The notes beneath the pieces are model-generated. The model was not told the DNA's origin. It saw only the letters and a list, made by a program, of their open reading frames with translations, and made no database searches. This document shows, piece by piece, positions 363 through 15,691 of a stretch of 15,691 bases of DNA. Source of the DNA: a virus (Duplodnaviria > Heunggongvirae > Uroviricota > Caudoviricetes). Positions within the stretch are counted from its first letter, which is position 1. Each line of letters begins with the position of its first letter. The DNA lies in IMG/VR virus record IMGVR_UViG_2778261058_000019; one strand, 5' to 3'. The position numbers were made by a program, and so were the translations under genes.

Positions 363-389
363 AACCCGCTTCGGCGGGTTTTTGTTTTT
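363..389 (+). terminator. Rho-independent terminator downstream of hok
   Basis: Hairpin CCCGC-TTCG-GCGGG (365-378) followed by TTTTTGTTTTT. Confidence 0.65.
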
Positions 390-510
390 ATTTTCAACGC
401 GTTTGAAGTTCTGGACGGTGCCGGAATAGAATCAAAAATACTTAAGTAGCGCGCAGGGATAAGAGGGATGGTCCCTTAAAGGGGAGAGCTAATTATCCGG
501 AAGGATTCTG

Positions 511-762
511 ATGATGAACATCGAAGAACTGCGTAAAATTTTTTGTGAAGATGGCCTCTATGCTGTGTGCGTTGAAAATGGAAATCTTGTTAGTCATTAC
601 CGCATTATGTGTTTGCGAAAGAATGGGGCTGCGTTAATTAATTTTGTGGATGCTCGGGTCACGGACGGATTTATCTTGCGCGAAGGTGAGTTTGTCACTT
701 CATTACAGGCATTGAAAGAGATCGGAATAAAAGCTGGCTTTTCTGCTTTTTCAGGAGAATAA
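511..762 (+). CDS. rem: Rem, small prophage protein of unknown function (83 aa)
   Basis: ORF 511..762 with SD GGAAGGA at 499-505 five nt before the ATG. Length 83 aa and position between hokD and ydfU match the K-12 Qin layout from memory. Confidence 0.65.
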   Translation: MMNIEELRKIFCEDGLYAVCVENGNLVSHYRIMCLRKNGAALINFVDARVTDGFILREGEFVTSLQALKEIGIKAGFSAFSGE

Positions 763-828
763 ACTCATCTACAATCTTGCGCGGGGCTGAACTCCCGCTG
801 AGTAACACCGTGCCACCGGAGAAAACCG

Positions 829-1107
829 ATGGCACGCAACGCAAAATATTACAATTCTGATAATTCGCCCGTTCTTGCCTGCACGCACGGGCGGTATTCT
901 CACGCATTCAAGTCTGAATGGTTCCAGCACCCTCCATGCACTGCAGAACAGGCCGAATGGCTGATTCATTCTTACCGCAGGCGCGGGTTCGAGGTTAAGA
1001 AAGCTCTCAGTCTCGACTATCGGCACTGGATAATCTCTGTCAGGCTGCCTTATTCCGAACGCCCACCACGTGCGTCCCGCACTTTCCAGCAACGGATCTG
1101 GAGGTAA
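829..1107 (+). CDS. Hypothetical prophage protein (92 aa), translationally coupled to ydfU
   Basis: ATG 829 is preceded by GGAG at 818-821 (7-nt spacer). Stop TAA 1105-1107 overlaps the SD of the next gene, whose GTG is at 1109. No family recognised from the sequence. Confidence 0.45.
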   Translation: MARNAKYYNSDNSPVLACTHGRYSHAFKSEWFQHPPCTAEQAEWLIHSYRRRGFEVKKALSLDYRHWIISVRLPYSERPPRASRTFQQRIWR

Positions 1108-1108
1108 C

Positions 1109-2158
1109 GTGCGGGTATTACTTAGACCTGTTCTGGTGCCTGAGCTTGGGCTGGTGGTCCTTAAGCCGGGCCGTGAATCCATACAGATATTTCATAATCC
1201 TCGAGTGCTGGTGGAACCGGAACCAAAAAGCATGCGTAATCTGCCATCCGGAGTCGTTCCTGCCGTTCGCCAGCCGCTGGCGGAAGACAAAACATTGCTG
1301 CCGTTTTTTAGTAACGAACGGGTGATTCGTGCTGCTGGCGGCGTTGGCGCATTGTCCGACTGGCTATTACGTCATGTTACATCCTGCCAGTGGCCTAATG
1401 GCGATTACCATCACACTGAAACAGTCATTCACCGTTATGGTACCGGCGCAATGGTGTTGTGCTGGCACTGCGACAACCAACTGCGTGACCAGACATCGGA
1501 ATCACTGGAGCTGCTTGCTCAACAAAATCTGACAGCATGGGTGATTGACGTCATCCGTCACGCAATAAGCGGTACGCAGGAGCGGGAATTATCTTTGGCT
1601 GAATTATCCTGGTGGGCGGTCTGCAATCAGGTGGTGGATGCACTACCTGAGGCTGTATCGCGTCGTTCGCTGGGATTACCAGCGGAAAAAATCTGCTCGG
1701 TGTACCGCGAAAGCGACATCGTACCGGGAGAGCAGACCGCCACCAGCATATTGAAACAACGCACAAAAAATCTTGCACCGTTGCCTTACGCCCACCAGCA
1801 ACAAAAATCACCACAGGAAAAGACGGTGGTAAGCATCACCGTTGATCCAGAGTCTCCGGAATCTTTCATGAAGCTGCCTAAACGTCGCCGCTGGGTTAAG
1901 GAGAAATACACACGTTGGGTTAAGACACAGCCGTGTGCTTGCTGCGGTATGCCAGCCGACGATCCGCATCATCTGATTGGTCACGGGCAGGGCGGAATGG
2001 GAACAAAAGCACATGATCTCTTTGTGTTGCCTTTGTGCAGAAAGCATCACAACGAGCTGCATACGGATACAGTGGCATTTGAAGATAAGTATGGCTCCCA
2101 ACTGGAGCTGATATTTCGTTTTATCGATCGCGCGCTGGCAATTGGCGTACTGGCGTAA
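1109..2158 (+). CDS. ydfU: YdfU-like prophage protein (349 aa) with HNH-like Cys/His motif at the C-terminus
   Basis: Long ORF ending TAA 2156-2158. GTG 1109 follows GGAGG (1100-1104) and gives 349 aa, the length I recall for YdfU; the ORF track begins at an upstream ATG (1070, 362 aa). C-terminus reads CACCGMPADDPHHLIGH...CRKHHNELH. Confidence 0.65.
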   Translation: MRVLLRPVLVPELGLVVLKPGRESIQIFHNPRVLVEPEPKSMRNLPSGVVPAVRQPLAEDKTLLPFFSNERVIRAAGGVGALSDWLLRHVTSCQWPNGDYHHTETVIHRYGTGAMVLCWHCDNQLRDQTSESLELLAQQNLTAWVIDVIRHAISGTQERELSLAELSWWAVCNQVVDALPEAVSRRSLGLPAEKICSVYRESDIVPGEQTATSILKQRTKNLAPLPYAHQQQKSPQEKTVVSITVDPESPESFMKLPKRRRWVKEKYTRWVKTQPCACCGMPADDPHHLIGHGQGGMGTKAHDLFVLPLCRKHHNELHTDTVAFEDKYGSQLELIFRFIDRALAIGVLA

Positions 2159-2171
2159 GTGGAGAACGAGC

Positions 2172-2924
2172 ATGAACCTTGAAGCCTTACCAAAATATTA
2201 CTCCCCAAAATCTCCAAAATTGAGCGATGACGCTCCAGCGACAGGCACCGGTTGTTTAACAATTACGGATGTAATGGCAGCGCAGGGGATGGTGCAGTCG
2301 AAAGCACCACTTGGGTTGGCCTTATTTCTGGCAAAAGTTGGTGTTCAGGACCCTCAGTTTGCGATTGAAGGCCTGCTAAATTACGCGATGGCACTGGATA
2401 ACCCGACATTGAACAAATTGAGTGAAGAAATCCGGTTACAGATTATTCCTTACCTCGTGAGTTTTGCCTTTGCTGATTACTCCAGGTCTGCGGCAAGTAA
2501 GGCTCGCTGTGAGCATTGTTCAGGTACGGGATTTTATAATGTATTGCGCGAAGTGGTGAAACACTACAGACGCGGGGAATCTGTAATCAAGGAAGAATGG
2601 GTGAAGGAACTATGTCAGCATTGCCATGGTAAGGGCGAAGCCAGCACAGCGTGCAGAGGGTGTAAGGGTAAAGGGATTGTTCTGGATGAAAAAAGAACCC
2701 GGTTTCATGGCGTACCGGTATATAAGATTTGTGGGCGTTGTAATGGAAACCGGTTTAGTCGTTTACCGACCACGCTGGCACGACGTCATGTCCAGAAGCT
2801 GGTACCAGACCTGACCGATTATCAGTGGTATAAGGGGTATGCGGACGTCATTGGTAAACTGGTAACAAAGTGCTGGCAGGAAGAAGCATACGCGGAAGCG
2901 CAATTGAGGAAGGTGACGAGATAA
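2172..2924 (+). CDS. quuQ: Late-gene antiterminator Q homolog (250 aa) with four DnaJ-type CxxCxGxG repeats
   Basis: ATG 2172 follows GGAG (2161-2164) and gives 250 aa; the ORF track starts at an in-frame TTG at 2142. It sits just upstream of a promoter-plus-terminator module and the lysis genes, as Q does in lambdoid phages. Cys repeats are CEHCSGTG, CQHCHGKG, CRGCKGKG and CGRCNGN. Confidence 0.7.
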   Translation: MNLEALPKYYSPKSPKLSDDAPATGTGCLTITDVMAAQGMVQSKAPLGLALFLAKVGVQDPQFAIEGLLNYAMALDNPTLNKLSEEIRLQIIPYLVSFAFADYSRSAASKARCEHCSGTGFYNVLREVVKHYRRGESVIKEEWVKELCQHCHGKGEASTACRGCKGKGIVLDEKRTRFHGVPVYKICGRCNGNRFSRLPTTLARRHVQKLVPDLTDYQWYKGYADVIGKLVTKCWQEEAYAEAQLRKVTR

Positions 2925-2955
2925 ATGATTTTTGCTGAAGATGGCGACATGATGT

Positions 2956-2984
2956 TTGCATTTTTCAAAAAATATGGATAAAAT
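2956..2984 (+). promoter_or_regulatory. Candidate Q-dependent late promoter (PR'-like)
   Basis: TTGCAT (2956-2961), 17-bp spacer, TAAAAT (2979-2984), immediately after the Q homolog and about 45 nt before a strong terminator. This is the typical PR'-qut-tR' arrangement; called by eye only. Confidence 0.35.
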
Positions 2985-3030
2985 TTTTTCAACGATGGGC
3001 TTTGTATACCCGACGTTAAGAAAAAGTAGA

Positions 3031-3057
3031 AAACCCGCTGATGAGCGGGTTTTGTGC
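3031..3057 (+). terminator. Rho-independent terminator (tR'-like) after the candidate late promoter
   Basis: Hairpin AACCCGCT-GATG-AGCGGGTT followed by TTTGTGCTTT. Confidence 0.65.
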
Positions 3058-3345
3058 TTTAAATGGGGCAATGGTAATGTTGAATCTCATCCCGGGACTC
3101 ATGTCTGTTAACTTATTATTTAGCTGGTGACTTGGTTATTTGCCTGATGTTTAAAATGTTTTCTTCCAGTACAATGTCCCTAAACACAATGAGTCTGCTT
3201 ATTATATTATTAGCAGAGCTATTACGGCCAAAGTACAGCATAAGCTTTTAAAGCCAATCAACCAGTCATCAAGACAGACGGGGTTATTCATAAAAACTCT
3301 CCATGTGTGATCCGATGGGGCCTGAAATTAAAGCTTTAATATAGC

Positions 3346-3558
3346 TCATGAAAGGTAAACATTGGCAGCTGAAGGGCCACGCAGACCATTTATCCGGCAA
3401 AATTCCACGCGTAATCCGGTGGTAATTTCTTCTGCATCGCGGAGATTGAGCGCTGAAACATGAAGCTGGACATCGATACGACCATCGGATGGGGTGATAA
3501 GACCCTTGCCGCTTTTGCCGTCAAAGGTTTTGACAATTCCTGTCATTTTACGGGACAA
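3346..3558 (-). CDS. cspF: Cold-shock protein CspF (CspA family, 70 aa)
   Basis: Translation [26 protein letters not shown]...[16 protein letters not shown] is a cold-shock domain protein. The first codon is TTG at 3558-3556 with SD AAGGA six nt upstream; the first in-frame ATG (3546) would have an 18-nt spacing. Confidence 0.8.
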
Positions 3559-3858
3559 AAAAATTCCTTAATACTGATAACTTGGCGCACTATACACACG
3601 TTCCTGAAGAAAGCTATAGTTTTTTGATGGGGTTGAAGATGGCTGGATGTCTAAAATAAACATTGCTTCATATGTTCAACTATGCGTTAATGATTGCGTC
3701 GGTTTGAAGAACAGACGATATACGAAGTAGTTTACTAAAGCAGTTCTCATTTCAGGTGTTATTCACTTATTCCTTCTTTGAGTCTCTCCAATTAAGTACG
3801 AAGTCGTTTCTGTTATGCAAACCATTTATGCCGAAAGGCTCAAGTTAAGGAATGTAGA

Positions 3859-4074
3859 ATGTCAAATAAAATGACTGGTTTAGTAAAATGGTTTAACGCT
3901 GATAAAGGTTTCGGCTTTATTTCTCCTGTTGATGGTAGTAAAGATGTGTTTGTGCATTTTTCTGCGATTCAGAATGATAATTATCGAACCTTATTTGAAG
4001 GTCAAAAGGTTACCTTCTCTATAGAGAGTGGTGCTAAAGGTCCTGCAGCAGCAAATGTCATCATTACTGATTAA
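3859..4074 (+). CDS. cspB: Cold-shock protein CspB (CspA family, 71 aa)
   Basis: [38 protein letters not shown]... carries the cold-shock domain RNP motifs KGFGFI and VFVHF. SD AAGGA at 3847-3851, ATG at 3859. Confidence 0.9.
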
Positions 4075-4356
4075 AATTCATCGCTCGTCTGTATACGATA
4101 ACGAAGAAGGCTGATGCCTGAGTAGAGATACGGACAGAGTAGTGAATATTGGATCTCTTTAATAAAAAGTAAGGAGGTCCAATACATGAAACAATGGCTA
4201 GCATATTTGGCAAAATCTTAATCAGGAAAAGTATGCTAACCATTGTGGTGAAGTGCAGGTTTGCTGCATGAATAGTTTTACAGCAGAAGCTAACTGCTGG
4301 CATGGCAAAACAAAGTGCGTAAGTGGATGACTCCCACAAAAAGCACCACAATCTCA

Positions 4357-6383: not shown

Positions 6384-6609
6384 GGTAATATTAAATCGGA
6401 ACATTTACATCGCGGAATGTAAAATTTAAATAAAAAGGACTCTTCCATGAGCCAAAATTCCTGAAATCTTAAGGGTAAGATAAAAGGTCTTAATCAGAAT
6501 GACACGTTTTATTAATAAATAAAGCTATTCTTTCATTGCTGTGTTTTTCTTTACAAAAGTAATCCTTGCTATGGGTGGTTAATCATGCGTTAATGGTGTT
6601 CTGGTTTGT

Positions 6610-6642
6610 TACAAATTTATCTGAAGCAGTCATTGTTATAAT
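6610..6642 (+). promoter_or_regulatory. Candidate cspI promoter (perfect -10 TATAAT at 6637-6642, weak -35, AT-rich upstream)
   Basis: TATAAT lies about 100 nt upstream of the cspI ATG, consistent with the long 5' UTRs of cspA-family genes. Called by eye; low confidence. Confidence 0.3.
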
Positions 6643-6745
6643 TTTATTATTTGTACCTCTTGAGATTTCCTTGTTGGTTTTTCTCTCTGATATTTTTTTT
6701 CGGACCATTCTGCCCAAGGGCTAATTTCTTCAAAAGGTAATAATT

Positions 6746-6958
6746 ATGTCTAACAAAATGACTGGTTTAGTGAAATGGTTTAACCCTGAAAAAGGTTTTG
6801 GTTTCATCACGCCGAAAGATGGCAGCAAAGATGTGTTTGTCCATTTCTCAGCAATTCAGAGCAACGATTTCAAAACATTAACTGAGAATCAGGAAGTTGA
6901 ATTTGGTATTGAGAACGGACCTAAAGGTCCTGCCGCTGTTCATGTAGTGGCGCTTTGA
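6746..6958 (+). CDS. cspI: Cold-shock protein CspI (CspA family, 70 aa)
   Basis: [38 protein letters not shown]... is a cold-shock domain protein and a close paralog of the cspB copy at 3859. Confidence 0.9.
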
Positions 6959-7163
6959 GGTAGACAATATTACAAACCATATTCACTTTAGATGCCCGTG
7001 TTGTCATGGTTCCCAGTATAGAACATCATCTTTTGATGTTTCTGACATGAATCCTTTCGGGGCAAAATGTATCTTTTGTAAATCAATGATGATTACATTT
7101 GATAATATTTCACAATACTTAAATGCCAGCCGTCTGTCGTTGGATTTAAAAAAGTGAAAATGA

Positions 7164-8423: not shown

Positions 8424-8657
8424 TCAATCTGGTCTGACCTGTTTTCTGAGCAATTCAGTAATGTCACTCTTTTCTTTGTTTGCTTCAGAAGAAACTCTTT
8501 TTTCTGAGCACAGTCTCCGGCGGCAGGCTTCAATGACCCAGGCTGAGAAATTCCCGGACCCTTTTTGCTCAAGAGCGATGTTAATTTGTTCAATCATTTG
8601 GTTAGGAAAGCGGATGTTGCGGGTTGTTGTTCTGCGGGTTCTGTTCTTCGTTGACAT
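8424..8657 (-). CDS. ynfO: YnfO-like small protein (77 aa), predicted ribbon-helix-helix DNA-binding fold
   Basis: Minus-strand ORF 57 nt upstream of ydfO on the same strand. Arg-rich N-terminus, then NIRFPNQMIEQINIALEQKG...NFSAWVIEACRRRL, which looks like a strand-helix-helix (Arc/CopG-like) pattern. Fold assignment is inference. Confidence 0.6.
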   Translation of the reverse strand: MSTKNRTRRTTTRNIRFPNQMIEQINIALEQKGSGNFSAWVIEACRRRLCSEKRVSSEANKEKSDITELLRKQVRPD

Positions 8658-8829
8658 GAGGTTGCCCCGTATTCAGTGTCGCTGATTTGTATTGTCTGAA
8701 GTTGTTTTTACGTTAAGTTGATGCAGATCAATTAATACGATACCTGCGTCATAATTGATTATTTGACGTGGTTTGATGGCCTCCACGCACGTTGTGATAT
8801 GTAGATGATAATCATTATCACTTTACGGG

Positions 8830-9040
8830 TCCTTTCCGGTGATCCGACAGGTTACGGGGCGGCGACCTCGCGGGTTTTCGCTATTTATGAAAATTTTCCG
8901 GTTTAAGGCATTTCCGTTCTTCTTCGTCGTAACTTAATGTTTTTATTTAAAATACCCCCTGAAAAGAAAGGAAACGACAGGTGCTGAAAACGAGCTTTTG
9001 GGCCTCTGTCGTTTCCTTTCTCTGTTTTTGGCCGTGGAAT
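8830..9040 (+). other. Lambda-type cos site (cosQ-cosN-cosB); 12-nt cohesive end GGGCGGCGACCT at 8857-8868
   Basis: Bases 8841-8880 read GATCCGACAGGTTACG|GGGCGGCGACCTCGCGGGTTTTCG, the fused right and left ends of phage lambda as I recall them. The roughly 170 bp upstream also resemble the lambda right end, and the downstream region leads into Nu1. Confidence 0.85.
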
Positions 9041-9045
9041 GAACA

Positions 9046-9591
9046 ATGGAAGTCAACAAAAAGCAGCTGGCTGACATTTTCGGTGCGAGTATCCGTACCA
9101 TTCAGAACTGGCAGGAACAGGGAATGCCCGTTCTGCGAGGCGGTGGCAAGGGTAATGAGGTGCTTTATGACTCTGCCGCCGTTATAAGATGGTATGCCGA
9201 AAGGGATGCTGAAATTGAGAACGAAAAGCTGCGCCGGGAAGTTGAAGAACTGCGGCAGGCCAGCGAGACAGATCTCCAGCCAGGGACTATTGAGTACGAA
9301 CGCCATCGACTTACGCGTGCGCAGGCCGACGCACAGGAGCTGAAAAATGCCAGAGACTCCGCTGAAGTGGTGGAAACCGCATTCTGTACTTTCGTGCTGT
9401 CGCGGATCGCAGGTGAAATTGCCAGTATTCTCGACGGGATCCCCCTGTCGGTGCAGCGGCGTTTTCCGGAACTGGAAAACCGACATGTTGATTTCCTGAA
9501 ACGGGATATCATCAAAGCCATGAACAAAGCAGCCGCGCTGGATGAACTGATACCGGGGTTGCTGAGTGAATATATCGAACAGTCAGGTTAA
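9046..9591 (+). CDS. nohQ: Terminase small subunit Nu1 homolog (181 aa), apparently full length
   Basis: MEVNKKQLADIFGASIRTIQNWQEQGMPVLRGGGKGNEVLYDSAAVIRWYAERDAEIEN... is essentially lambda gpNu1 with its N-terminal helix-turn-helix. The 3' end overlaps the start of the terminase A reading frame as in lambda. Symbol by analogy with Qin (nohA/nohQ). Confidence 0.85.
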   Translation: MEVNKKQLADIFGASIRTIQNWQEQGMPVLRGGGKGNEVLYDSAAVIRWYAERDAEIENEKLRREVEELRQASETDLQPGTIEYERHRLTRAQADAQELKNARDSAEVVETAFCTFVLSRIAGEIASILDGIPLSVQRRFPELENRHVDFLKRDIIKAMNKAAALDELIPGLLSEYIEQSG

Positions 9592-11242
9592 CAGGCTGCG
9601 GCATTTTGTCCGCGCCGGGCTTCGCTCACTGTTCAGGCCGGAGCCACAGACCGCCGTTGAATGGGCGGATGCTAATTACTATCTCCCGAAAGAATCCGCA
9701 TACCAGGAAGGGCGCTGGGAAACACTGCCCTTTCAGCGGGCCATCATGAATGCGATGGGCAGCGACTACATCCGTGAGGTGAATGTGGTGAAGTCTGCCC
9801 GTGTCGGTTATTCCAAAATGCTGCTGGGTGTTTATGCCTACTTTATAGAGCATAAGCAGCGCAACACCCTTATCTGGTTGCCGACGGATGGTGATGCCGA
9901 GAACTTTATGAAAACCCACGTTGAGCCGACCATCCGCGATATTCCGTCGCTGCTGGCGCTGGCTCCGTGGTATGGCAAAAAGCACCGGGATAACACGCTC
10001 ACTATGAAGCGTTTTTCCAATGGTCGTGGCTTCTGGTGCCTGGGCGGTAAAGCGGCAAAAAACTACCGTGAAAAGTCGGTGGATGTGGCGGGTTATGATG
10101 AACTTGCTGCCTTTGATGAGGATATTGAACAGGAAGGCTCTCCGACGTTCCTTGGCGACAAACGTATTGAAGGCTCGGTCTGGCCAAAGTCCATCCGTGG
10201 CTCCACGCCCAAAGTGAGAGGCACCTGCCAGATTGAGCGTGCAGCCAGTGAATCCCTGCATTTTATGCGTTTTCATGTTGCCTGCCCGCACTGCGGGGAG
10301 GAGCAGTATCTTAAATTTGGCGACAAAGAGACGCCGTTTGGCCTCAAATGGACGCCGGATGACCCCTCTAGCGTGTTTTATCTCTGCGAGCATAATGCCT
10401 GCGTCATCCGCCAGCAGGAGCTGGACTTTACTGATGCCCGTTATATCTGCGAAAAGACCGGGATCTGGACCCGTGATGGCATTCTCTGGTTTTCGTCATC
10501 CGGTGAAGAGATTGAGCCGCCGGACAGTGTGACCTTTCACATCTGGACGGCGTACAGCCCGTTCACCACCTGGGTGCAGATTGTCAAAGACTGGATGAAG
10601 ACGAAAGGGGATACGGGAAAACGTAAAACCTTCGTGAACACCACGCTCGGTGAGACATGGGAAGCGAAAATCGGCGAACGTCCGGATGCTGAGGTGATGG
10701 CGGAGCGGAAAGAGCATTATTCAGCGCCCGTTCCTGACCGTGTGGCTTACCTGACCGCCGGTATCGACTCCCAGCTGGACCGCTACGAAATGCGCGTATG
10801 GGGATGGGGGCCGGGTGAGGAAAGCTGGCTGATTGACCGGCAGATTATTATGGGTCGCCACGACGATGAACAGACGCTGCTGCGTGTGGATGAGGCCATC
10901 AATAAAACCTATACCCGCCGGAATGGTGCAGAAATGTCGGTATCCCGTATCTGCTGGGATACTGGCGGGATTGACCCGACCATTGTGTATGAACGCTCGA
11001 AAAAACATGGGCTGTTCCGGGTGATCCCCATTAAAGGGGCATCCGTCTACGGAAAGCCGGTGGCCAGCATGCCACGTAAGCGAAACAAAAACGGGGTTTA
11101 CCTTACCGAAATCGGTACGGATACCGCGAAAGAGCAGATTTATAACCGCTTCACACTGACGCCGGAAGGGGATGAACCGCTTCCCGGTGCCGTTCACTTC
11201 CCGAATACCCGAAACTTGCAGTTGCTTATCCGTCAGGCGTGA
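9566..11242 (+). pseudogene. Terminase large subunit (gpA-like), 3'-truncated by a deletion; 558 codons with a short out-of-frame tail
   Basis: GTG 9566 starts MNISNSQVNRLRHFVRAGLRSLFRPEPQTAVEWADANYYLPKES..., which follows lambda gpA (641 aa) as I recall it up to ...LPGAVHFPN near 11207. The frame then reads [11 protein letters not shown] and stops at 11240-11242, so the C-terminal ~90 residues of gpA are missing. Confidence 0.85.
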
Positions 11243-11808
11243 TCCCTGATATGCGTGGCTGGACGATTAAGGGCAAGCCCGCCAGTGGTCGGGCCGTATT
11301 ATCTCAGGAACAGGACGGCATTAAATCGCACACCCACAGCGCCAGCGCATCCAGTACGGATTTGGGGACGAAAACCACATCGTCGTTTGATTACGGAACC
11401 AAATCCACGAATAACACCGGGGCGCATACCCATAGTATTAGCGGGACCGCAAATAGTGCCGGTGCGCACCAACACAAGAGTTCCGGTGCATTTGGTGGCA
11501 CGAACACGAGCATTTTCCCTAATGGTTATACCGCGATTTCAAATCTAAGCGCGGGGATTATGAGCACAACAAGCGGTAGTGGCCAGATTCGTAATGCAGG
11601 GAAGACATCATCAGATGGTGCTCATACCCACTCGCTGTCCGGCACTGCTGCAAGCGCAGGCGCACATGCACATACTGTCGGTATTGGTGCTCATACGCAC
11701 TCCGTTGCGATTGGTTCACATGGACACACCATCACCGTTAACGCTGCTGGTAACGCGGAAAACACCGTCAAAAACATCGCATTTAACTATATTGTGAGGC
11801 TTGCATAA
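11239..11808 (+). CDS. stfQ: Side tail fiber protein (Stf-like), C-terminal fragment (up to 189 aa) with GAHTHS-type repeats
   Basis: This frame is open from 11176 and already reads [28 protein letters not shown]... across the junction. The first possible starts are GTG 11239 and ATG 11251, with no clear SD. His/Gly/Ala-rich repeats (GAHTHS, GAHQH, GAHAH) are typical of lambda-type side tail fiber C-termini. May be an unexpressed remnant. Confidence 0.6.
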
Positions 11809-12383
11809 TGGCATTCAGAATGAGTGAACAACCACGGACCATAAAAATTTATAATCTGCTGGCCGGAACTAATGAATTTATTGGTGAAGGTGATGCATAT
11901 ATTCCGCCTCATACAGGTCTGCCAGCAAACAGTACCGATATTGCACCGCCAGATATTCCGGCTGGCTTCGTGGCTGTTTTCAACAGTGATGAGTCATCGT
12001 GGCATCTCGTTGAAGATCATCGGGGTAAAACGGTTTATGACGTGGCTTCCGGCGACGCGTTATTTATTTCTGAACTCGGTCCGTTACCGGAAAATGTTAC
12101 CTGGTTATCGCCGGAAGGGGAGTTTCAGAAGTGGAACGGCACAGTCTGGGTGAAGGATACGGAAGCAGAAAAACTGTTCCGGATCCGGGAGGCGGAAGAA
12201 ACAAAAAACAACCTGATGCAGGTAGCCAGTGAGCATATTGCGCCGCTTCAGGATGTTGCAGATCTGGAAATTGCAACGGAGGAAGAAATCTCGTTGCTGG
12301 AAGCATGGAAAAAGTATCGGGTATTGCTGAACCGTGTTGATACGTCAACTGCACAGGATATTGAATGGCCAGCACTGCCGTAG
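11808..12383 (+). CDS. tfaQ: Tail fiber assembly protein (lambda Tfa-like, 191 aa)
   Basis: ATG overlaps the stf stop (TAATG). [54 protein letters not shown]... matches lambda Tfa as I recall it. Confidence 0.85.
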
Positions 12384-12480
12384 GGTAAAACATATAAATT
12401 CTATAATTAGATGTATCTTTCCATTTACGGCAAGGAAGGGGGCTTGGAAGACGTAAAGCATCTCACACCGAGATTATTTT

Positions 12481-13071
12481 TTATATGTCAGGTGTCTGAA
12501 GTTTTGCTTTGGCTCTTAAAATGGTTTGCCGCGAGGTTTTGAATTCCCGGGCAATGGCACTTATACTTACACCTGACTTAATTCGTTCGAATACCGCCTG
12601 TTTCTGTTCTTCATTTAACACAGGTGGTCGACCAAAACGTTTCCCTGCGCCGCGGGCTCTTACTATCCCGGAATGAGTGCGTTCAAGTAAAAGGTCTCGT
12701 TCAAATTCAGCGACTGCTGAAATTACTTGCATCATCATTTTTCCTGTTGGACTGGTCAGGTCAATGCCCCCCAATGCTAAGCAATGCACTCTGATACCTG
12801 TTTCGGTCAGTTGTTCCACTGTTTTCCTGATATCCATTGCATTACAACCAAGGCGATCCAGTTTTGTCACAATCAATTGATCACCACATTTCAGGCGAGC
12901 AAGCAACCGGTTAAAACCAGGACGCTCACTGGTTGCTGCTGAGCCGCTAATGTGTTCTTCGATTATTTGCTGAGGTTTGATTTTAAAACCTGCACTTTCG
13001 ATTTCCCGGCGTTGATTTTCGGTGGTCTGATCCAGCGTTGATATCCGACAGTAAGCAAAAATTTGAGACAT
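12481..13071 (-). CDS. pinQ: Serine recombinase (resolvase/invertase family, 196 aa)
   Basis: Minus-strand [23 protein letters not shown]... has the N-terminal catalytic serine motif (YCRISTLDQ), [14 protein letters not shown] and a C-terminal HTH. Position beside stf/tfa is that of Pin-type invertases. Confidence 0.8.
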
Positions 13072-13387
13072 AGTGAGACTCTATACGAAATTGGTGTTCA
13101 TATCATAATGCATCTCAGAAAATAATTATGATTATTTTTGTGCATATTTGTATGTACACGTTCGAAAATAAACGAATGCGTATGCAACCCCGTAATTTTG
13201 GTGAGACCCAAAATCGATTTTGTGAAAAATGGCTTTAACTCGGTTTGTTTTTCGAGTTCCGGGCGGACTCAAGGAAGAAGAATAGTGTTGCGTGTTATTT
13301 TAACCAGATTTCAAGTTGTTTGGTCGTGGAAAAGTGGAGCAAAATGTTGTTAAAGTGGAAAAATGATAAAAAAGTAAGTTTATTATA

Positions 13388-13621
13388 TTACATTTTACCA
13401 TTTAAATTTTGGTTGTCTTTAAGAACTGATATCGCTGTTTGTAATAATTCTTTGTTATCCAGCCATGATTTTTTCTTTATGTTTCCTTCAATGTAATCAA
13501 GCAATGTTCTGGTATTGATAGGTCTTCCCTGTTTTGCTACTTCCACTACAGCATCCCCTAGGATAATTCTTACTTCAGGAAGCTGCGCAGGGAACCACTT
13601 TAGGGTGTCTTTTGATTTCAT
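13388..13621 (-). CDS. ydfK: YdfK-like small protein (77 aa)
   Basis: Minus-strand ORF; the 77-aa form starts MKSKDTLKWFPAQLPEV... at ATG 13621-13619, and the track's 88-aa form starts 11 codons upstream. Lies between pinQ and the prophage/host boundary as in Qin and Rac (ynaE paralog). Confidence 0.65.
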   Translation of the reverse strand: MKSKDTLKWFPAQLPEVRIILGDAVVEVAKQGRPINTRTLLDYIEGNIKKKSWLDNKELLQTAISVLKDNQNLNGKM

Positions 13622-14407
13622 GAAGATATTCCTTAAAATATTATTGATTTTCATTGCGATATTGTATGTCTGATTCAGGATATGTTGACTTATACATCGG
13701 TTTTGTCTGGGTTATTGGATATGCCAATCCCTAATTTTATTAGGGCATGACTAAAAATGCTGAATATGATAAGGAGAGATGTGATTATCAGTATGCTGTT
13801 CATATAGCCTCGAATTAGTAATGTGTTATATATGATATAGTTGACAATTTTTATCTTGGGTGTTCTTAAAGTTCGTAGATAAACATTGTCGTTTCAGGTA
13901 TACAGGAATGCTAACAGGTGGCAGCAAAAATCAGGCGGTTTATGGCGCAAGCTGAAGCGGCAACTGCAAACTATCTTATGTAGAGACTCTACACGGATTG
14001 GGTTTAAAAGTATACATAGATAACAGTTTTTATCTGAAAAAGAAAAATATCAAGGTGATATAGCCTATATGCCTTTGATGCGGAGGAATGAATGTGATGG
14101 GAGTGATGTATCTGAATAGTTGAAAAACCGCAGACACGCCTTATGCAAGAACGTGCTGCGATTGGCTGGTAAATTTTTCGATAGTGTGAGTATTGAATGA
14201 TTTCCAGCCGTTCTTGATTTTACGCATAAATCCATGAAAAAACTACTTATCTGTTGGGGAGTTTTTTTGGGGCATATATGGGACAGAAATAGGCCCCAGA
14301 TAGACACTGAGATCGAACTTAGGATGCTTTTTAAAAAAATGCAACTATCTGAAAAAACCTAGAAAACGCCAAGGAAACCACAGGATGGGAAAAAACACCT
14401 GTGAATT

Positions 14408-15691
14408 ATGGATTTCCAGTTATATTCGCTCGGCGCAGCGTTAGTGTTTCATGAAATATTTTTTCCTGAATCATCAACGGCAATGGCGTTAATTCTGGCA
14501 ATGGGAACCTACGGTGCAGGTTATGTGGCGCGTATTGTCGGAGCATTTATTTTCGGCAAAATGGGCGACAGAATAGGGCGTAAAAAAGTGCTCTTTATTA
14601 CCATCACCATGATGGGGATCTGTACCACCTTAATTGGTGTGTTACCGACCTATGCACAGATTGGTGTTTTTGCACCCATCTTGCTGGTGACGTTGCGTAT
14701 TATTCAGGGGTTGGGTGCAGGTGCGGAAATTTCCGGTGCCGGTACGATGCTGGCGGAATATGCGCCAAAAGGTAAGCGCGGAATTATCTCCTCATTTGTG
14801 GCTATGGGAACTAACTGCGGAACCTTGAGCGCAACGGCAATCTGGGCCTTTATGTTCTTCATTCTCAGTAAAGAGGAACTGCTGGCGTGGGGATGGCGTA
14901 TACCGTTCCTGGCGAGCGTTGTCGTGATGGTCTTTGCTATCTGGTTGCGTATGAATCTGAAAGAAAGCCCGGTCTTTGAGAAGGTTAACGACAGTAACCA
15001 ACCGACAGCAAAACCTGCACCTGCTGGTAGCATGTTCCAGAGCAAATCCTTCTGGCTGGCAACAGGGCTGCGTTTTGGTCAGGCGGGTAACTCCGGGTTA
15101 ATTCAGACTTTCCTTGCAGGCTATTTAGTGCAGACGTTATTGTTTAACAAAGCAATTCCAACAGATGCATTGATGATCAGTTCGATTCTCGGCTTTATGA
15201 CCATTCCGTTCCTTGGTTGGTTATCCGATAAAATTGGTCGCCGGATCCCGTATATTATTATGAATACCTCCGCGATTGTGCTGGCATGGCCAATGCTTTC
15301 TATCATTGTAGATAAAAGCTATGCCCCGAGCACCATTATGGTTGCACTGATTGTGATTCATAACTGTGCGGTGCTGGGATTATTTGCTCTGGAAAACATT
15401 ACCATGGCAGAAATGTTCGGCTGTAAAAACCGCTTTACCCGGATGGCTATTTCTAAAGAAATTGGTGGTCTTATCGCTTCCGGTTTTGGTCCTATCCTGG
15501 CGGGTATTTTCTGCACCATGACGGAATCCTGGTATCCGATCGCCATTATGATCATGGCATATTCAGTAATTGGTTTAATCTCTGCGCTGAAAATGCCAGA
15601 GGTGAAAGACCGTGATTTAAGTGCGCTGGAAGACGCTGCGGAAGATCAACCGCGTGTTGTAAGAGCTGCGCAACCTTCCAGAAGTCTGTAA
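14408..15691 (+). CDS. ydfJ: MFS transporter (metabolite:H+ symporter type), N-terminally truncated at the prophage/host junction (427 codons)
   Basis: ORF starts MDFQLYSLGAALVFHEIFFPESS... and carries the MFS signature GKMGDRIGRKKVLF. It begins at the conserved DFxLYG motif, which in full-length homologs follows the first transmembrane helix, so about 25-30 N-terminal residues are missing. An in-frame stop sits two codons upstream of the ATG. Confidence 0.75.
   Translation: MDFQLYSLGAALVFHEIFFPESSTAMALILAMGTYGAGYVARIVGAFIFGKMGDRIGRKKVLFITITMMGICTTLIGVLPTYAQIGVFAPILLVTLRIIQGLGAGAEISGAGTMLAEYAPKGKRGIISSFVAMGTNCGTLSATAIWAFMFFILSKEELLAWGWRIPFLASVVVMVFAIWLRMNLKESPVFEKVNDSNQPTAKPAPAGSMFQSKSFWLATGLRFGQAGNSGLIQTFLAGYLVQTLLFNKAIPTDALMISSILGFMTIPFLGWLSDKIGRRIPYIIMNTSAIVLAWPMLSIIVDKSYAPSTIMVALIVIHNCAVLGLFALENITMAEMFGCKNRFTRMAISKEIGGLIASGFGPILAGIFCTMTESWYPIAIMIMAYSVIGLISALKMPEVKDRDLSALEDAAEDQPRVVRAAQPSRSL

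Follow-up and report, generated by a model that had tools for sequence, protein, structure and literature searches.

In Escherichia coli K-12, overproduction of the small serine recombinase PinQ inverts the 1797-bp P segment of e14 at its pix repeats (Kirigo et al., NAR 2025, PMC12529663). The inversion creates a chimeric StfE2 and blocks adsorption of T2, and T2 induces the pinQ and pinR transcripts 14-fold (PMC12529663). In Tn3 resolvase, R71 is one of six residues that, when mutated, leave cleavage and recombination strongly lowered, about 1000-fold or more; in R71 mutants binding to site I is not abolished, and the mutants are described as "not inert" (PMC2794168). Here we describe a recombinase gene that stands next to tail fiber genes in a 15,691-nt stretch of DNA (IMG/VR virus record IMGVR_UViG_2778261058_000019; hereafter the window). 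The gene is pinQ (12481..13071, minus strand), a known small serine recombinase gene of Qin, a cryptic lambdoid prophage of E. coli. The window is the right-hand end of this prophage, which is inserted in ydfJ, and pinQ lies at that end. A 3.4-kb stretch around the recombinase is 99.9% identical to E. coli chromosomes, where the annotated genes are a partial terminase, a phage tail protein, tfaQ, pinQ, ydfK, ynfT and an N-terminally truncated ydfJ. The gene is intact; its 196-aa product matches the Pfam families Resolvase (2.5e-36) and HTH_7 (2e-11) and has the same sequence as the PinQ protein that other E. coli encode at the Qin locus (100% identity).

The explanation that we regard as probable, taken as a whole, is that pinQ of Qin stands in its native layout, comes from plasmid-borne resolvase-like recombinases and acts only in trans. 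The identity of the gene, its layout, the absence of local sites, the family relationship, an eroded upstream array and a cysteine at a catalytic position come from the present analysis; the effect on e14 in trans is taken from the literature.

Layout of the pinQ locus and the search for crossover sites

The initial annotation had noted one stf 3' end and one tfa gene upstream of the recombinase, and the open reading frames (ORFs) at 11239-11808 and 11808-12383 agree with this. The first belongs to a remnant of stfQ (11205..11808, plus strand; Pfam Phage_fiber repeat) that retains the C-terminal part of the side tail fiber only and is collinear with the 3' end of the full-length stf in phage 2H10 and in intact Qin-site prophages. 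The second is the sole tail fiber assembly gene, annotated as tfaQ (11808..12383, plus strand; Pfam Caudo_TAP, 4.4e-42). pinQ is convergent with both. No second tfa or stf in the opposite orientation was found in the window by ORF or Pfam analysis. The spacer between the stop codons of tfaQ and pinQ (12384..12480) contains no crossover site and is conserved, with one or two substitutions across five loci, including phages with a different fiber cassette. The predicted fold of this spacer is not significant (z-scores of -0.10 and +0.41), and no terminator was called in it.

The same arrangement is found in relatives of the prophage. PinQ is 98-100% identical to the recombinases of the lambdoid phages PhiR34_1, Kati, 2H10, mEp460 and Tritos. 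In 2H10 and Tritos the gene order is J-(lom)-stf-tfa (or an alternative fiber cassette)> <recombinase-ydfK-like...int, with one fiber gene set, and the layout of the lineage is J-lom-stf-tfa> <pin-ydfK-ynfT-attR. Ten E. coli contexts at the Qin site (ydfJ) differ in their degree of decay, some with intact J-lom-stf(1024-1132 aa)-tfa and others with deletions or insertions of insertion sequences (IS), and all have an identical pin-proximal layout. All 24 studied loci of the PinQ lineage are collinear with the window over stf3'-tfa-pin-ydfK-ynfT, and none contains an inverted (minus-strand) piece. The proposal of the initial annotation that a switch has decayed here does not hold, as viable phages and intact ydfJ-site prophages share the single stf and tfa with a convergent recombinase. 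PinQ was never part of a local tail fiber switch and is not a remnant of the Gin/Cin/Pin type.

Searches for crossover sites were in line with this layout. The e14 pix sites of K-12 are TTCTCCCAAACC-AA-GGTTTTCGAGAG and TTCTCCCAAACC-AA-CGTTTATGAAAA, located 1797 bp apart, and the pixL and pixR 26-mers used as queries were taken from the K-12 sequence. The gix, hix and cix queries were the 26-mers that we take to represent these sites. The best matches of all these 26-mers to the window have 7-10 mismatches, and shuffled sequences reach 8; the sole match with 7 mismatches is in ydfJ at 15387. The core pattern AAACCNNGGTTT, with up to two mismatches allowed, has 12 matches in the window versus 10.2 expected, none of them between 11540 and 13690. 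No sites of the type used by the Gin/Cin/Pin/Hin (Din) recombinases were found above chance in related loci by the 26-mer and core searches, and in the whole 46-kb genome of 2H10 there is no Din-type site within 8 mismatches, except for chance-level matches unrelated to this region. The initial annotation was thus right in reporting no inverted pair of gix-like sites: such sequences occur at chance level. A generic inverted-repeat search over 9000-14400 gave no crossover pair, only short imperfect pairs.

Several individual candidates were rejected. The longest inverted pair, 9222-9246 and 12997-13021, spans 25 nt at 80% identity, with about 0.2 such pairs expected by a hand estimate; both of its arms are coding, with similar EN..RRE peptides in nohA and pinQ, and we consider it to be close to chance. 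The partial match CGAGGTTTTG reported earlier within the recombinase gene was located at 12532-12541, in the 3' end of pinQ that codes for the helix-turn-helix (HTH), and has no matching left half. The palindrome CCCAAAAT-CG-ATTTTGTG between ydfK and pinQ (13207..13224) has the geometry of a crossover site, but there is one copy in the window and it has no partner; one degenerate copy in the entire 2H10 genome corresponds to the chance level.

The boundary of the fiber cassette was also considered. In some Qin-site prophages (L009, 8819-12513) and in Tritos (L003, 6819-10858) a different cassette is present, which consists of a phage_tail_N fiber, a small ORF, an S74-type fiber and another small ORF; these retain the last ~110 nt of tfa as a remnant beside pin (window ~12265-12383). 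The break of homology falls within the 3' end of tfa near 12265 and is not site-like, and therefore the cassettes would be exchanged by recombination at this place and not at a recombinase site.

What has decayed in the window is a different part of the prophage. In blastn comparison, window positions 8495-11211 correspond to 2H10 positions 384-3101 and window positions 11205-11444 to 2H10 positions 23162-23401. The two pieces overlap by 7 nt (ATACCCG, 11205..11211), and the terminase homology stops at 2H10 position 3101, inside the gene at 1455-3380. Accordingly placed at this junction is the gene of the terminase large subunit (9566..11211, plus strand; ORF 9566-11242; Pfam GpA_ATPase and GpA_nuclease), with its 3' end removed. 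Compared with 2H10, the decay is a deletion of ~20 kb that fused the terminase gene to the 3' end of stf, with loss of the head and tail genes. The terminase::stf junction of the window is contiguous in none of 5,426 complete E. coli genomes, and other strains have different junctions at the same prophage; this variety suggests that deletions occurred at Qin repeatedly and independently.

Plasmid relatives of PinQ and their upstream array

The initial annotation had discussed the recombinase in the frame of Gin/Cin/Pin-type systems. By identity and bit scores, PinQ falls outside the tight Gin/Cin/Pin/Hin (Din) clade, in which the members closely resemble each other. It is 38% identical to PinE; its scores against Gin and gamma-delta resolvase are 106 and 84 bits, while PinE reaches 312 and 112 bits, respectively. 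At the same time, PinQ is ~99% identical to PinR of the prophage Rac. Proteins with 76-85% identity to PinQ are abundant and often plasmid-borne; for relatives at 65-85% identity, tblastn matches were found on 1,868 plasmid records, mainly from Klebsiella, Escherichia and Enterobacter, and relatives of PinQ are present in many species of Enterobacterales. In two plasmid examples, the recombinase gene has parM and the leading region in its vicinity. Homology between the plasmid and phage copies extends beyond the gene, over ~130 nt before the start codon. In NCBIfam, PinQ receives no family-level name, and all matches are far below the cut-offs. As part of the joint explanation given above, and with the same degree of confidence, we suggest that PinQ descends from this plasmid-borne, resolvase-like family.

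Natural chimeras were observed in which the N-terminal part, with Arg76, is of the plasmid type and the C-terminal part is of the PinR type (proteins P0004-P0008; L097 6001-6591). The crossover points follow about residue 76, 115 or 180, and one chimera is found in a lambdoid prophage at prfC. Such proteins indicate likely gene conversion between plasmid and prophage copies. Three contigs with 99-100% identity to the E. coli pinQ region (L018, L019 and L021) are filed under metagenome-assembled genomes of Draconibacterium, Caldithrix and Alistipes; the most likely reason is that these bins are contaminated with E. coli sequence.

Upstream regions were surveyed in 79 loci from contigs selected as one genome per species. 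Relatives at 65-80% identity have a positionally fixed array of TGT[A/C]CGAAA half-sites, essentially one array per locus. Exact half-sites recur at -114(>), -98(<), -74(>), -52(<) and -21(<) in most loci of the family. The first part of the array is a 26-bp palindrome of 12-2-12 geometry, TGWCCGAAACCG-GT/AC-CGGTTTCGTACA, with the family form of site A being TGACCGAAACCG-GT-CGGTTTCGTACA. The second part is a 32-bp palindrome, TGTCCGAAAGT...TTTCGKACA. The third part comprises the -10 element TATAAT, followed by two further half-sites in direct repeat. With the family matrix, the half-site of gamma-delta site I reaches 9.8 bits, a value at the upper extreme of the scores of the window 12-mers; the half-site used, TGTCCGATAATT, is presumably that of the 1GDT site. 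From its sequence organization, the family is probably a res/resolvase-type module, with a putative role in resolution of plasmid multimers or cointegrates.

The central dinucleotide of the 26-bp palindrome (-116 to -91 relative to the start codon, loci L028-L086) is either GT or AC, independent of the type of the left half-site, as in L031 versus L032, L058 and L076. In L058, the left half of one group is seemingly joined at the center to the right side of another group. A variable GT/AC center would fit the palindrome being the crossover site.

The array is eroded in the PinQ/PinR/phage lineage and is still alignable with the same spacing. Of 55 columns with a conservation of at least 90% in the family, the window, 2H10 and Tritos each match 43; elsewhere the family minimum is 49 and the median is 55, and plasmid pECOED has 53. 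No exact half-site was found in the upstream array of the PinQ lineage. In the window, the eroded array and promoter occupy 13082..13184 (minus strand) and include H6 (13082-13090), H5 (13095-13103), the -10 element TATGAT (13102-13107), the equivalent of site B (13113-13144) and the equivalent of site A (13159-13184). H6 alone scores in the family range, H2 and H3 are partial, and the site-A equivalent, corresponding to the 26-bp palindrome, is the most degraded part. One further half-site, TGACCGAAACAG (12.9 bits), is located inside the pinQ coding sequence (12798-12809, minus strand; +263) and is kept in all copies of the lineage; the plasmid alleles have an internal half-site at +47 instead. 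The internal half-site of pinQ could be either a chance occurrence or a residual predicted binding site.

The architecture of PinQ, a catalytic domain at the N-terminus followed by the HTH at the C-terminus, is that of a small serine recombinase, and the protein aligns over nearly the full length with gamma-delta and Tn3 resolvases. The catalytic nucleophile Ser11 (codon 13039..13041, minus strand), equivalent to S10 of gamma-delta resolvase, is present according to the translation and the alignment to gamma-delta resolvase and Gin, as are Y7, R9 and R73 (equivalents of Y6, R8 and R68). The equivalent of D36 is Glu across the whole family. In the HMMER alignment, KLDRLGC of PinQ is aligned with KLDRLGR of Gin and gamma-delta, which places Cys76 (codon TGT, 12844..12846, minus strand) opposite R71 of Tn3/gamma-delta resolvase. 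Therefore PinQ lacks the complete key-residue set of Tn3 resolvase (Y6, R8, S10, D36, R68, R71). Residue 76 is Cys in 21 of 21 loci of the PinQ lineage and Arg in 65 of 65 other loci of the family, so that the eroded array and Cys76 coincide in the PinQ/PinR lineage.

Reported action on e14 and alternative explanations

Since there is no partner site in cis and the own site of PinQ is eroded, PinQ would matter only in trans. With no usable substrate in cis, any recombination by PinQ would take place in trans, and the reported target is the pix-site pair of the e14 P segment, whose inversion would lead through StfE2 to the block of T2 adsorption. PinQ would then be a weak catalyst at best, dependent on an e14-like element elsewhere in the genome. 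The alternative offered by the initial annotation, that the recombinase acts on sites elsewhere, matches the published effect of PinQ on the P segment; direct catalysis by PinQ was not demonstrated there. On balance, we lean towards PinQ being a weak but genuine trans-acting recombinase on Din-type sites.

A number of observations weigh against this explanation. In the published measurements, the inverted fraction of the P segment is 30% in the wild type and 22% after deletion of pinQ, and deletion of pinE alone reduces it to 1.5%, that is, the segment is locked with pinQ and pinR intact (PMC12529663 supplement). Overproduction of PinQ in a pinE+ host gives 88% inverted and overproduction of PinE 49% (PMC12529663 supplement); neither a test of PinQ in a pinE-deleted host nor an in vitro assay was found in PMC12529663, and in the literature we found no PinR or PinQ biochemistry beyond the reports of the Wood laboratory. 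When scored with the half-site matrix of the family, none of the pix half-sites exceeds 3.9 bits, compared with 12-19 bits for the family sites. Cys76 predicts poor catalysis. e14 is not within the 15.7-kb window, so that a trans target in this genome is putative. Finally, pinQ is not a pseudogene, being intact in thousands of assemblies, and its ratio of nonsynonymous to synonymous substitution rates (dN/dS) is 0.14-0.16 versus plasmid alleles and 0.37 when compared with a divergent allele that also has Cys76, which suggests that constraint is relaxed but still present; an intact gene with dN/dS of 0.14-0.37 points to selection for some function, which need not be recombination.

These observations can also be read in another way, which is possible, although we find it doubtful. 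The PinQ/PinR lineage may have arisen from a plasmid res/resolvase system by domestication, with its catalysis impaired, and would be kept as a DNA-binding protein that itself does not recombine; PinE would catalyze the e14 inversion underlying the T2 defense, and PinQ would bias or stimulate it, for example when bound to pix or hybrid sites, as a partner in mixed complexes or via altered expression of pinE. Cys76 occupies the R71-equivalent position in every member of the lineage, and R71 mutants with at least 1000-fold less cleavage still bind site I (PMC2794168). The effects of the two deletions, locking of the segment without pinE and barely a shift without pinQ, agree with this account, and so does the 88% inversion on PinQ overproduction in a pinE+ host, given that the 49% obtained with PinE is what a simple invertase should give. 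PinQ has kept a conserved HTH although its own sites are eroded, and dN/dS is higher within the Cys76 lineage (0.37 vs 0.14-0.22). On the other hand, R71 mutants are described as not inert, a weak activity could be made up for by long overproduction, the PinQ-dependent phenotypes are reported to require both pix-bearing genes (PMC12529663), and a steady-state bias can also result when a true recombinase binds parental and recombinant sites with different affinity.

It is unlikely that PinQ works as a resolvase in cis, acting on 13082-13184 to resolve dimers of the circularized or replicating phage genome or to bring about recombination between the copies in Qin and Rac. The array does share homology and spacing with the res-like array of the plasmid relatives, H6 has a score typical of the family, and H2 and H3 score partially. 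However, the site-A equivalent, which is the putative crossover site, is the most eroded element, with H1 retaining 3 of 9 consensus positions in an alignment read by eye, and none of the best-scoring upstream half-sites is a 12-mer in the H1 register; the lineage lacks exact half-sites, and Cys76 is present. Besides, a dimer-resolution system is not known to be needed by lambdoid phages, which we count against this possibility.

A Gin/Cin/Pin-type switch that lost its alternative stf C-terminus, second tfa and crossover sites and left the invertase behind is extremely unlikely: a serine recombinase does adjoin stf and tfa in a visibly decayed prophage (the terminase::stf deletion), but viable phages and intact prophages have the same single fiber set with a convergent recombinase, neither a pix-like half-site nor traces of another tfa or stf were found in the window, related loci or 2H10, PinQ is outside the Din clade, and its 3' end faces the fiber genes, whereas in e14 it is the 5' end of pinE that abuts the P segment.

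Other features of the prophage end and comparison with known systems

Upstream of the deletion junction, the window contains nohA (9046..9591, plus strand), the gene of the terminase small subunit (Nu1 homologue) of Qin, identified by Pfam Phage_Nu1 (2.4e-101) and by its annotation in a near-identical genome. ydfK (13388..13654, minus strand; YnaE family), co-directional with pinQ, is recognized by annotation, by Pfam YnaE on neighbors and by PHROG 2718, and belongs to pin-ydfK-ynfT, a conserved module located where the prophage ends. The attR side is marked by ydfJ' (14408..15691, plus strand; Pfam MFS_1), a host gene of the major facilitator superfamily (MFS) of transporters that was cut by the prophage insertion and is annotated in a near-identical genome as incomplete, with its N-terminus missing. 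The other Qin genes in the window are rem, ydfU, ydfT, cspF, cspB, lysis genes, cspI, gnsB, ydfO and ynfO. The cspA-type thermoregulator 5' leaders (RF01766) precede cspB (3698-4090, plus strand; 159 bits) and cspI (6600-6985, plus strand; 113 bits). A full-length Rfam match to IS009 (RF02111) was found at 12151-12349 (plus strand) with 220 bits versus a gathering score of 117; it is wholly within the 3' half of tfaQ and is either an RNA or merely conserved tfa coding sequence.

A recombinase beside tail fiber genes with nothing to invert is explained here by a named gene with a published trans-acting role. In the PinQ literature that we searched, we did not find its non-Gin-type membership in a common plasmid family with a res-like site, the loss of most of this site in the phage/prophage lineage or the Cys at the position of a catalytic arginine. 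The family, the eroded array and Cys76, together with the published data on the pinE deletion, make the direct-catalysis model of the "first recombinase-activated phage defence" testable, and this model possibly needs revision.

The locus shares features with several known systems. Similarly to Gin (G segment of Mu), Cin (C segment of P1) and Hin (H segment of Salmonella), PinQ has the Resolvase and HTH_7 domains, the GRPP arm before the HTH and the association with tail fiber genes; in contrast to these systems, the window has no ...AAACC-NN-GGTTT... crossover pair and no invertible segment bearing alternative fiber C-termini and a second assembly gene. PinE of e14 is likewise a small serine recombinase adjoining stf and tfa genes. 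However, e14 has stfP-tfaP> <tfaE-stfE between inverted 26-bp pix sites, with the 5' end of pinE abutting the segment, whereas the window has one fiber set, no sites and a convergent gene.

The resemblance to Tn3/gamma-delta lies in the relatives of PinQ, which have one array of six TGT[A/C]CGAAA half-sites before the gene, resembling the gamma-delta half-site TGTCCGATA; two pairs of half-sites form palindromes of 26 bp and 32 bp, and the third pair overlaps the promoter. Unlike in Tn3/gamma-delta, the third pair of half-sites in these relatives is a direct repeat, and the window differs further by its eroded array, by Cys at the position of R71 and by the lack of an adjacent transposase. The plasmid proteins annotated as 'recombinase family protein/resolvase' (IncF/I/K and Klebsiella plasmids) have 65-85% identity to PinQ and homologous sequences over the upstream ~130 nt; in contrast to PinQ, these alleles have Arg76 and intact half-sites and are located near partition or leading-region genes, not near tail fiber genes. 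With PinQ and PinR of K-12 the locus shares the tfa-pin-ydfK/ynaE-ynfT synteny at the prophage end, the insertion in ydfJ (Qin) and a near-identical protein, and it differs from them by its own terminase::stf junction.

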